DNA of 5,159 bases, taken from a virus (Duplodnaviria; Heunggongvirae; Uroviricota; Caudoviricetes). The first letter of the stretch is position 1; each line of letters starts with the position of its first letter. Positions 2,340-3,925 of this stretch are shown here, piece after piece. The position numbers were made by a program, and so were the translations under genes. Under the pieces are notes generated by a model that made no database searches, was not told the origin of the DNA, and saw only the letters and a program-made list of their open reading frames with translations. The stretch spans positions 1 to 5,159 of the IMG/VR virus record IMGVR_UViG_2529292981_000032. One strand, written 5' to 3'.

Positions 2340-3707
2340 ATGGCAGTAAAGATTTCAGGTGTACTGAAAGACGGCACAGGAAAACCGGTAGAGAACTGCA
2401 CCATTCAACTGAAAGCCAGACGTAACAGCGCCACGGTGGTGGTGAACACGGTGGCCTCTGAAAATCCGGATGAAGCCGGTCGTTACAGCATGGACGTTGA
2501 GTACGGTCAGTACAGCGTTATTCTGTTGGTGGAAGGGTTCCCGCCGTCACATGCCGGGACCATCACCGTGTATGAAGATTCTCAACCGGGGACGCTGAAT
2601 GATTTTCTCGGTGCCATGTCGGAGGATGACGTCCGGCCGGAGGCACTGCGCCGTTTTGAACTGATGGTGGAAGAAGCGGCGCGTCACGCTGAGGAGGCGA
2701 AGAAGAATGCCGGAGAGGCGGAGACGTCCGCGAGGAATGCCGGCATATCAGCCAGTCAGGCAGAAGAGAGCGCGGCAAATGCTGACACTTCAGCAGGGGA
2801 TGCATCGGAGTCAGCCCGGCAGGCGGCAGAAAGTGCAGCCGCTGCAAAGCAGTCAGAGGAGGCGTCCTCGTCCTCGGCCTCTGCGGCCGCTCAAAAAGCC
2901 AGTGAGTCATTACAAAGTGCAACAGATGCTGAGTTGTCAAAAAAGACGGCAGAAAGTGCAGCCGGTAATGCAGCCAGGGATGCAACGACCGCAGCAGAAA
3001 AAGCCCGGGAGTCAGCAGAAAGCGCACAGTCAGCGGAACAAAGCAGGATAGCGGCGGAAGAAGCCGTAAACAGAATCCCCACCGTGGTGGGACCTCCCGG
3101 GCCAAAGGGGGAACAGGGGCCCGCGGGTCCTCAGGGGCCGAAGGGTGATAAGGGAGAGCGCGGTGACACCGGCCCTGTCGGGGCAACCGGCGAACGGGGA
3201 CCGGCAGGTGATGCTGGTCCGGCAGGCCCGCAGGGGCCGAAAGGTGACAGGGGAGAGCGGGGAGAGACCGGTCTGACGGGAAATGCAGGTCCACAGGGTC
3301 CAAAGGGAGACACCGGTGCAGCAGGCCCGGCAGGCCCACAGGGACCGAAAGGAGAAACAGGTGCGGCTGGCCCGGTGGGGGCAACCGGACCTCAGGGACC
3401 GAAGGGCGACCCGGGGGAGACACAAATCCGTTTTCGTCTGGGGCCGGCGAGCATTATTGAGACAAACAGCCATGGCTGGTTCCCGGGTACAGATGGTGCG
3501 CTCATCACCGGACTGACCTTTCTTGCCCCCAAAGATACCACACGGGTTCAGGGTTTTTTTCAGCATTTGCAGGTCAGGTTTGGTGACGGGCCGTGGCAGG
3601 ATGTTAAGGGGCTGGATGAAGTGGGCAGTGATACAGGCAGAACAGGAGAATGTCATGAACATACTAAAAAAACTTATGCAGCGTCTGTGTGGTTGCGGAA
3701 AGCATGA
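2340..3707 (+). CDS. stf: Side tail fibre protein: conserved lambdoid Stf N-terminal attachment domain, Ala/Ser/Glu-rich shaft, 37 Gly-X-Y collagen-like triplets, short C-terminal region
   Basis: ATG at 2340 preceded by GGGGTG; the track ORF begins at an in-frame GTG at 2334. N-terminus MAVKISGVLKDGTGKPVENCTIQLKARRNS... matches the conserved Stf N-terminus as I recall it from lambda. Low-complexity A/S/E-rich segment, then a perfect G-X-Y run 3090-3422. Stop TGA 3705-3707. Confidence 0.85.
   Translation: MAVKISGVLKDGTGKPVENCTIQLKARRNSATVVVNTVASENPDEAGRYSMDVEYGQYSVILLVEGFPPSHAGTITVYEDSQPGTLNDFLGAMSEDDVRPEALRRFELMVEEAARHAEEAKKNAGEAETSARNAGISASQAEESAANADTSAGDASESARQAAESAAAAKQSEEASSSSASAAAQKASESLQSATDAELSKKTAESAAGNAARDATTAAEKARESAESAQSAEQSRIAAEEAVNRIPTVVGPPGPKGEQGPAGPQGPKGDKGERGDTGPVGATGERGPAGDAGPAGPQGPKGDRGERGETGLTGNAGPQGPKGDTGAAGPAGPQGPKGETGAAGPVGATGPQGPKGDPGETQIRFRLGPASIIETNSHGWFPGTDGALITGLTFLAPKDTTRVQGFFQHLQVRFGDGPWQDVKGLDEVGSDTGRTGECHEHTKKTYAASVWLRKA
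3090..3422 (+). repeat. Collagen-like Gly-X-Y coding repeat (37 uninterrupted triplets, mainly GPQ/GPK/GPA/GDT/GER) within the tail fibre gene
   Basis: Direct translation of frame 0 shows Gly at every third residue from codon 253 to 361; the DNA is correspondingly GC-rich and internally repetitive. Confidence 0.8.
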
Positions 3708-3925
3708 TGACCGTGAACACGGGGGAGTTACTTACAGCACAGCTGCGACTGGGGCCGGCAGACATCCTGGAGTCAGATGAGAATGGTATTATCCCGGAGC
3801 AGGACAGGGTAGTCACGCAGGTGGTGATACTGGATGCGGATAAAAAGCAGATACAGTGTGTGGTAAGACCGCTGCAAATCCTGCGTGCTGACGGGACGTG
3901 GGAAAATATTGGCGGGATGAAGTAA
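3704..3925 (+). CDS. Small hypothetical protein (73 aa) apparently translationally coupled to the tail fibre gene; alternatively the displaced C-terminal domain of the tail fibre (see findings)
   Basis: ATGATGA overlap: ATG 3704-3706 overlaps the tail fibre stop TGA 3705-3707. Frame 2 is open from 3668 to TAA 3923-3925 with protein-like composition (MMTVNTGELLTAQLRLGPADILESDENGIIPEQDRVVTQVVILDADKKQIQCVVRPLQILRADGTWENIGGMK), followed by a strong terminator. No family recognised. Confidence 0.45.
   Translation: MMTVNTGELLTAQLRLGPADILESDENGIIPEQDRVVTQVVILDADKKQIQCVVRPLQILRADGTWENIGGMK

Follow-up and report, generated by a model that had tools for sequence, protein, structure and literature searches.

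Results

A collagen-like side tail fiber gene and the small gene behind it

The 5,159-nucleotide stretch analyzed here (the window; IMG/VR record IMGVR_UViG_2529292981_000032, positions 1 to 5,159) covers the end, on the tail side, of a lambdoid prophage in an Escherichia coli of the enterohemorrhagic type, and it corresponds to positions 2-5160, that is, to the start, of contig AKLQ01000011.1 in the draft genome of E. coli PA40 (GCA_000267105.1). Our subject is a 73-codon open reading frame (ORF) on its plus strand (3704-3925; ATG 3704, TAA 3923-3925), which the initial annotation had flagged as a small element of unknown function coupled to the tail fiber gene. We find that this ORF is almost certainly the domain-coding remainder of a conserved 89-codon gene located 3' of the collagen-like side tail fiber gene, and there is as little doubt that the 89-codon gene resides in Shiga toxin (Stx)-type lambdoid prophages and phages of E. 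coli.

The fiber gene (2340-3707, plus strand) is of the EPclA type, with matches to PF08400, PF01391, and PF06820; the corresponding succession of PfN, coiled coil, collagen, and PfC has been described for EPclA (PMC3368898). A mechanical ORF call begins at GTG 2334, and the gene call of the source contig at ATG 2340. The fiber's own PfC knob is encoded by positions 3426-3617 (plus strand; residues 365-428 of the fiber ORF; PF06820, E = 2.9e-38). Alignments to relatives place the normal fiber stop at 3651-3653 (plus strand), where the window reads TGT instead of TGA, and the canonical small gene at 3655-3925 (plus strand), interrupted here by a +1 frameshift. The Shine-Dalgarno (SD) sequence of the small gene, AGGAG (3644-3648, plus strand), lies inside the end of the fiber gene, 6 nt before ATG 3655. 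An intrinsic terminator-like hairpin with a T run (3940-3970, plus strand) closes the fiber/small-gene unit, and an identical hairpin is present 3' of the small gene in phage phi24B.

The flagged ORF encodes a stand-alone PfC domain

The flagged ORF matches PF06820 (Phage_fiber_C) with an E value of 1e-35 and 122.4 bits (cut-off, 25), its residues 12-73 covering profile positions 1-64 of 64, and it matches phrog_576, "tail fiber protein," with an E value of 7e-44. It is 32% identical to the PfC of the fiber encoded next to it (residues 365-428; E = 2e-9). In an alignment of small-type and fiber-type PfC sequences, the invariant columns are R, G-P-A, I, G, P, D, I-T, L, L-Q, D-G, and W, and the core features of PF06820, the RLGP motif and the D-G-x-W end, are present in the small-type domain. 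NCBIfam has no family for the small protein. The NCBI Prokaryotic Genome Annotation Pipeline (PGAP) names it "phage tail fiber C-terminal domain-containing protein," and the lack of recognizable similarity reported initially does not hold. Of the options offered at that stage, a detached fiber C-terminal domain was essentially right. The homology to a known domain is thus clear; the small copy is normally a separate gene rather than part of the fiber polypeptide.

Several descriptive points of the initial annotation were borne out. The 73-residue product is acidic (pI 4.5; 11 D+E versus 7 K+R) and rich in Leu, Val, Ile, and Gln (8, 7, 7, and 6 of 73 residues), and its N terminus, read off the sequence, contains no hydrophobic stretch that would form a signal peptide. 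The ORF occupies the position of lambda tfa, directly after an stf-like gene, and shows no similarity to Tfa, with zero Caudo_TAP matches in Pfam at E ≤ 1.

The intact protein begins with a predicted short basic helix (about residues 3-11), followed by a variable linker containing Cys and His (about residues 12-24) and by the PfC copy, which forms the C-terminal 64 residues and is a diverged paralog of the fiber's trimerizing knob. Two candidate motifs in the N-terminal part were rejected. A lipoprotein signal at L-C-G-C (residues 11-14) would lack a hydrophobic core and have Arg10 within it, and many copies carry Tyr or Arg in place of Cys14; in a zinc-binding CxC...H...H motif, both Cys14 and His22 vary. 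Indeed, among 83 loci, Cys14 is replaced by Tyr or Arg and His22 by Asn or Asp, and a strict metal site or lipobox is therefore ruled out.

AlphaFold2, run on a 29-row alignment of two shallow clades, returned a model with a mean predicted local distance difference test score of 61, showing a helix at 3-11, disorder at 12-24, and six short strands. A Foldseek search with this model gave no match at E ≤ 0.001 in the PDB or BFVD, a result that carries no weight at such model confidence, and a PDB sequence search with the 89-residue protein reached E = 0.79 at best. The authors of the phi24B study obtained no confident AlphaFold model for PfC either (bioRxiv 10.64898/2026.04.10.717836).

Two private changes turn an 89-codon gene into a 73-codon ORF

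In its canonical geometry, the fiber gene ends in ...GGA GAA TGA and the ATG of the 89-codon gene follows one base later; the product begins MNILKKLMQRLCGCGKHD(D/G)REHGELLTAQLRLGPADIL.... The 89 codons in the context GGAGAATGA-C-ATG were found in Evi, VT1-Sakai, Sakai Sp14 (ECs2717/ECs2716), O157 strain 8368, and Z1323. The gene is intact at all 83 parsed loci, and the context CAGGAGAATGAcATG upstream of it is identical in 80 of the 82 that have upstream sequence.

Over 401 bases, the window differs from Sakai Sp14 at three places: TGA is changed to TGT at 3651-3653, the run at 3721-3725 (plus strand) has five G residues instead of four, one more than in all relatives, and A is changed to G at 3812 (Ile to Val). 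Deleting one G restores the canonical 89 residues from ATG 3655 (MNILKKLMQRLCGCGKHDDREHGELLTAQLRLGPADIL...), and this repaired translation differs from that of Sakai Sp14 by a single residue (I to V). Because of the extra G, the SD-led start yields an out-of-frame product of 41 amino acids (3655-3780, plus strand; MNILKKLMQRLCGCGKHDDREHGG, then a nonsense tail, in the frame of ORF 3523-3780), and the PfC domain can still be read only in the 73-codon frame, from a fortuitous internal ATG. The change at 3651-3653 in turn extends the fiber by 18 codons, to TGA 3705-3707.

The 73-codon frame and its ATGA overlap with the fiber stop thus arise from the extra G and the stop loss together. The coupling to the fiber gene proposed for the ORF is real in that the overlap is there at TGA 3705-3707, and it is peculiar to this contig; likewise, the ORF is genuine coding sequence, as its PF06820 match indicates, with an extent set by two private changes. 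Its length of 73 codons is not significant in itself, since the window holds 37 ORFs of at least 40 amino acids. No 89-codon frame led by an SD sequence starts one base after a fiber TGA in the window, which holds a disrupted allele of the 89-residue PfC family and not an intact member.

The disrupted allele is found in a single draft contig

Among about 15 billion proteins, the exact 73-residue protein occurs in one contig only, AKLQ01000011.1. The 762 member sequences of its 90% cluster should not be taken as 762 copies of this form, the members inspected (40 of 762) being partials or other forms. In IMG/VR, a 23-mer spanning the G5 run has no match and the 22-mer with G4 has 53; an 18-mer carrying the stop loss has six matches, all in unrelated sequences. 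None of 5426 complete E. coli genomes comes closer to the window than 3 differences in 401 bases (99.3%).

Four further private one-base indels lie in the same 4 kb, all in short homopolymers, and they break the genes J and lom. The 3' part of J (7-1440) carries three of them within 35 nt of its C-terminal coding region (+A at 1390, -A at 1399, and +G at 1424); the J frame consequently ends at 1440, and the actual C-terminal part, which binds the receptor, is carried in another frame by ORF 1394-1609 (Ig_GpJ_C). In lom (1677-2279), a private one-base deletion is located at 2158, the main frame matches only profile positions 1-165 of 199 of Pfam Ail_Lom, and the canonical C terminus (...GFIVGVGYKF) is found in ORF 2153-2275.

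The sequence is also mosaic. Between 1400 and 2000, it resembles strain 8368 in its Sp4-type copy but not Sakai Sp14; between 3400 and 4000, the reverse holds, with 2-3 differences from Sp14 and 22 from the Sp4-type copy. Either recombination between prophages or a collapsed-repeat consensus at the contig start accounts for this pattern. Strain 8368 matches the unique flank (4072-5159) at 100% identity; the repeated region has a median of 12 copies per complete genome. The form seen in the window is most likely an erroneous consensus at the edge of a draft contig in which about 12 paralogous prophage copies were collapsed; the alternative is a private pseudogenizing mutation, that is, a decaying allele.

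The intact gene is widespread in Stx-type phages and under purifying selection

The segment 3560-3960, covering the fiber 3' end and the small gene, has 7251 copies in 698 of the complete E. coli genomes, and the small gene is a full-length single frame in 295 of the 296 phage records that hold it; conservation, which the initial annotation had left to be surveyed, is therefore evident. These records include the short-tailed phages 933W, Sp5, and phi24B, in which the gene geometry is unchanged. The fiber-type PfC is likewise present in 296 of 50,697 phage records, with an almost identical organism breakdown, and every Stx-type phage record with a PfC fiber has the small gene.

The family is narrow, forming 287 clusters in 5.8 billion proteins. 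A hidden Markov model search of 1.84 billion representatives gave 93 matches, nearly all of them Escherichia fragments, and the taxa are essentially all Escherichia, plus Citrobacter rodentium. Among GTDB species representatives, three loci were found, in E. albertii, in a 725-bp "Xanthomonas" contig, and in a contig of a "Clostridiales" metagenome-assembled genome; the last two are probably contamination or mis-binning.

The ratio of nonsynonymous to synonymous polymorphism (pN/pS), computed on references together with the 80 loci of greatest similarity to the query, a sample that biases pN downward, is 0.11 for the small gene overall, 0.076 for its domain, and 0.32 for the N-terminal 24 codons; for the fiber PfC, it is 0.41, and pS is about 0.12 in both. 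The intact gene product is an expressed, constrained protein, more constrained than the fiber tip that it resembles.

Some atypical database entries were encountered in the family. P0191 (92 aa) is a chimera of the small-gene N terminus and the C-terminal half of a fiber-type PfC, and in P0041 (95 aa; locus L091, 4-291), collagen repeats are joined directly to a small-type PfC; the latter lies at a contig start and may be an assembly artifact rather than a case of natural swapping. P0232 (565 aa), distantly related, has four repeats of about 57 residues in tandem; these are similar to the small-type PfC in its C-terminal half (...VVVLDADAKTATGQMGILQVRRADGTWMEIPALKG) and are located upstream, not downstream, of collagen repeats, which suggests that other collagen-like phage fibers reuse the PfC half-motif as a module. 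Seven long entries among the representatives (P0230, P0236, P0249, P0250, P0198, P0237, and P0243; 738-4803 aa), each with numerous short segments similar to PfC, were rejected as natural PfC arrays, as they look like artificial concatenations; P0250 mixes such segments with scraps of the Cox, STIV penton, and RII-binding families, phage families unrelated to PfC.

Sequence downstream of the fiber unit

On the minus strand, at 4051-4407 (4051-4380 when delimited more narrowly), lies a fragment of an EspF-repeat effector (TccP/TccP2 type) that is devoid of its N terminus and contains a 141-bp (47-aa) proline-rich repeat in 2.4 copies. The gene has more repeats in relatives, where it is annotated as a frameshifted tccP2 or as partial. 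Another minus-strand ORF fragment, at about 4977-5159, is found at the position of EspV, which in the closest genomes PGAP records as a pseudogene, an incomplete "secretion protein EspV." In relatives, the next features are tRNA-Ser and hyaA, and the window is therefore a Sp4/CP-933M-type site.

Discussion

The small gene is an annotated and partly studied gene, neither a new small protein nor a new kind of system. In Sakai Sp14 it goes by the name of ECs2716, in Sp5 by that of ORF68, and in phi24B by that of ADN68460, "gp59" (locus L090, 4501-4770). The view of the flagged ORF as undescribed can therefore not be maintained: the family has Pfam (PF06820) and PHROG (phrog_576) entries, and the Sp5 ortholog, ORF68, has been deleted and discussed (PMC5155283). 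The ORF flagged as least characterized belongs to a named domain family and owes its odd boundaries to a frameshift in one draft assembly.

A literature search by locus tag gave nothing but noise; published work on the fiber and on its small neighbor was nonetheless found. Ghosh et al. (2012) showed that the isolated PfC of ECs2717 (EPclA) is a trimer (24 kDa versus 7.2 kDa for the monomer) that nucleates refolding of the collagen helix, and that full-length EPclA forms trimeric dumbbells when E. coli expresses it by itself, the small gene being absent; the Tm of the collagen is 42°C, and they make no mention of the gene downstream of ECs2717 (PMC3368898). Using in-frame deletions of Sp5 genes, Mondal et al. 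(2016) found the fiber gene ORF67 to be essential and ORF68 to be among the non-essential late genes, its deletion mutant still infecting K-12; they detected no signal for frameshifting and suggested that the gene is a reservoir of sequence for fiber variation (PMC5155283). In phi24B, cryo-electron microscopy revealed six lateral fibers of the collagen protein gp61 with their tips towards the capsid, and the authors doubt that the lateral fibers bind BamA and list the fiber function as open (bioRxiv 10.64898/2026.04.10.717836).

The supplement of the same preprint reports two unique peptides of the small protein, VITQVVILDADKK and ADGTWENIGGMK, in the virion proteome, with 3 spectra each, compared with 2267 for the fiber, 507 for the three-copy needle, and 23 for Lom, considered a contaminant by the authors; such low counts may fall short of the true amount where a protein is small and gives few tryptic peptides, and the stock had been stored for six months (bioRxiv 10.64898/2026.04.10.717836). 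There, the entry is labeled "Spike or just gp59?", and two hypothetical fiber/small-gene frameshift fusions, "Fusion_6159_FS1/FS2," figure among the entries that the authors built for their mass spectrometry search; neither is taken up in the text.

We tentatively propose, at somewhat less than even odds, that the small protein is a non-essential helper of fiber assembly or maturation that acts at the distal knob. Domain homology, the position of the gene and its translational signals, co-occurrence with the fiber, purifying selection, dispensability in Sp5 on K-12, expression, the trace level in phi24B virions, and the self-sufficient trimerization of the fiber are established. The small protein is translated from its own AGGAG and the ATG one base after the fiber stop, and would form, by homology with PfC, a homotrimeric β-rich knob. 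This knob may act on or beside the distal knob of the fiber during fiber production, and would for the most part not be retained in the finished particle.

Taken as a whole, the explanation that combines the identity of the gene, an artifactual form in the window, and a helper mechanism has, in our estimate, a probability of about 0.55. Several points weigh against it. In strain PA40, the inserted G and the missing stop could be genuine mutations. Trimer formation by the paralog, its contact with the fiber knob, and the helper role are steps that we infer, and neither the weak AlphaFold2 model nor the search for related folds adds anything to them. The spectra may underestimate the amount of small protein in virions, and the choice of similar loci lowers pN. 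A helper that plaque formation and lysogenization can do without, for a fiber that folds by itself, leaves the strong purifying selection unexplained, unless its benefit is conditional, for instance on natural hosts, on temperature, or in terms of yield.

The small protein can also be compared with known systems. Sp5 ORF68, ECs2716, and ADN68460 are the same gene, located directly after the collagen fiber gene and before the terminator; relative to them, the window has a frame broken at 3721-3725 and a lost fiber stop. Endosialidases and T5 pb1-type proteins carry a C-terminal intramolecular chaperone module (Peptidase_S74) that promotes trimer formation of a fibrous protein. The logic would be the same here, but the small protein has no Peptidase_S74 match and is encoded by a separate gene instead of being cleaved off the fiber. 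Lambda Tfa (Caudo_TAP, PF02413) is encoded at the same position, directly downstream of an stf-type fiber gene and in the same transcription unit, but it has about 194 residues, and the small protein is less than half that size. The latter, unlike Tfa, has no PF02413 match and is homologous to the fiber's own tip. Moreover, the fiber trimerizes without the small gene (PMC3368898), and deletion of the gene is tolerated though the Sp5 fiber is essential (PMC5155283). With the PfC of EPclA (ECs2717), an autonomous trimerization knob that nucleates the collagen helix (PMC3368898), the small protein shares the PF06820 domain; in contrast, it is a separate polypeptide with a 24-residue N-terminal extension that is not attached to collagen, and its domain is the more conserved of the two (pN/pS of 0.076 versus 0.41).

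A structural role in the virion has also to be weighed. Tip adhesins such as gp38 of T2/T6-type phages are small proteins encoded beside the fiber gene and found at the fiber's distal end. By analogy with gp38 on gp37 in T2-type phages, to which no homology is expected, a trimer of the small PfC could be a distal accessory subunit or adhesin that binds a conserved surface structure of importance on natural hosts and not on K-12. The position and translational coupling directly after the fiber gene, the strict co-occurrence with PfC fibers, and the peptides in purified phi24B virions agree with such a role, and the strong conservation would fit a conserved receptor. We nevertheless regard it as unlikely, because the spectra per residue in the phi24B supplement are about 50-fold below the fiber and about 15-fold below the three-copy needle, within the contaminant range, and because the Sp5 deletion mutant still infects K-12. 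Furthermore, the tip that binds the receptor is usually where a fiber varies most, and the small protein, conserved instead of hypervariable like gp38 and present only in traces in purified phi24B virions, is far less variable than the fiber knob.

It is also conceivable, if quite improbable, that the intact 89-residue protein is a fiber accessory of an as yet undescribed type, an unattached version of the fiber's trimerizing knob that works conditionally. It might cap the tips of the collagen-like lateral fibers, or latch them, for example by keeping them folded back to the capsid in the way seen in phi24B, for as long as the proper host or surroundings have not been encountered. Such a function would account for the strong conservation together with the dispensability on K-12 and the scarcity in stored virions.

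Returning to the allele in the window, stop loss and frameshift could be a real compensating pair. Ribosomes that read through the lost stop would arrive at ATGA 3704-3707, and termination-reinitiation would re-express the PfC domain, coupled again to the fiber, as a 73-residue protein without the N-terminal 22 residues. The two changes do produce an exact ATGA overlap, and the segment that would be lost is the least constrained (pN/pS of 0.32), with Cys14 and His22 varying naturally. Still, we see little chance that this allele is real and working: it is known from one draft contig, in mosaic sequence at the contig start and in a repeat of about 12 copies, and the four additional private indels that break J and lom do not look like selection for function. 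We retain the consensus error as the most likely origin of this form.

The proposal of Mondal et al. that the small gene is a silent cassette, spare sequence recombining into the fiber C terminus (PMC5155283), would find some echo in the chimeric proteins P0041 and P0191. It is very doubtful in light of the sequences themselves: the longest exact DNA word common to the two PfC copies is 11 nt, and collagen fused to a small-type PfC occurs in a single four-member cluster of the 287, at a contig start. A stretch of 11 nt is too short for efficient RecA-dependent homologous recombination. In addition, peptides of the small protein are detected, and SD and ATG conserved at 82 of 83 loci, a frame intact in all but one of the phage records, and a pN/pS of 0.11 point to selection on an expressed protein.

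Finally, a programmed frameshift or transcriptional slip yielding a longer fiber with two PfC knobs is largely refuted already and extremely improbable: a -1 slip at AAA AAA (3666-3671) in the A7 run 3666-3672 would enter the PfC frame, open from 3668 in the window, and the phi24B authors built two frameshift-fusion entries and asked "Spike or just gp59?," but the canonical fiber stop (3651-3653) lies upstream of the run and so puts it within the small gene, conservation of the run is lacking (in phi24B, ATTTTGAGAAAG stands in its place), no frameshift signal was found by Mondal et al. (PMC5155283), the homologs listed include no double-PF06820 architecture, and the phi24B supplement, in its available part, contains no peptide across the fiber/small-gene junction.

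As far as the flagged ORF is concerned, our analysis is mainly a correction, and the ORF has no place in a tally of new small proteins. The family to which it belongs is a modest open problem, in that a gene under strong purifying selection has been deleted without a reported phenotype. Since Stx phages spread Shiga toxin genes, factors that affect their adsorption or host range have some medical relevance.

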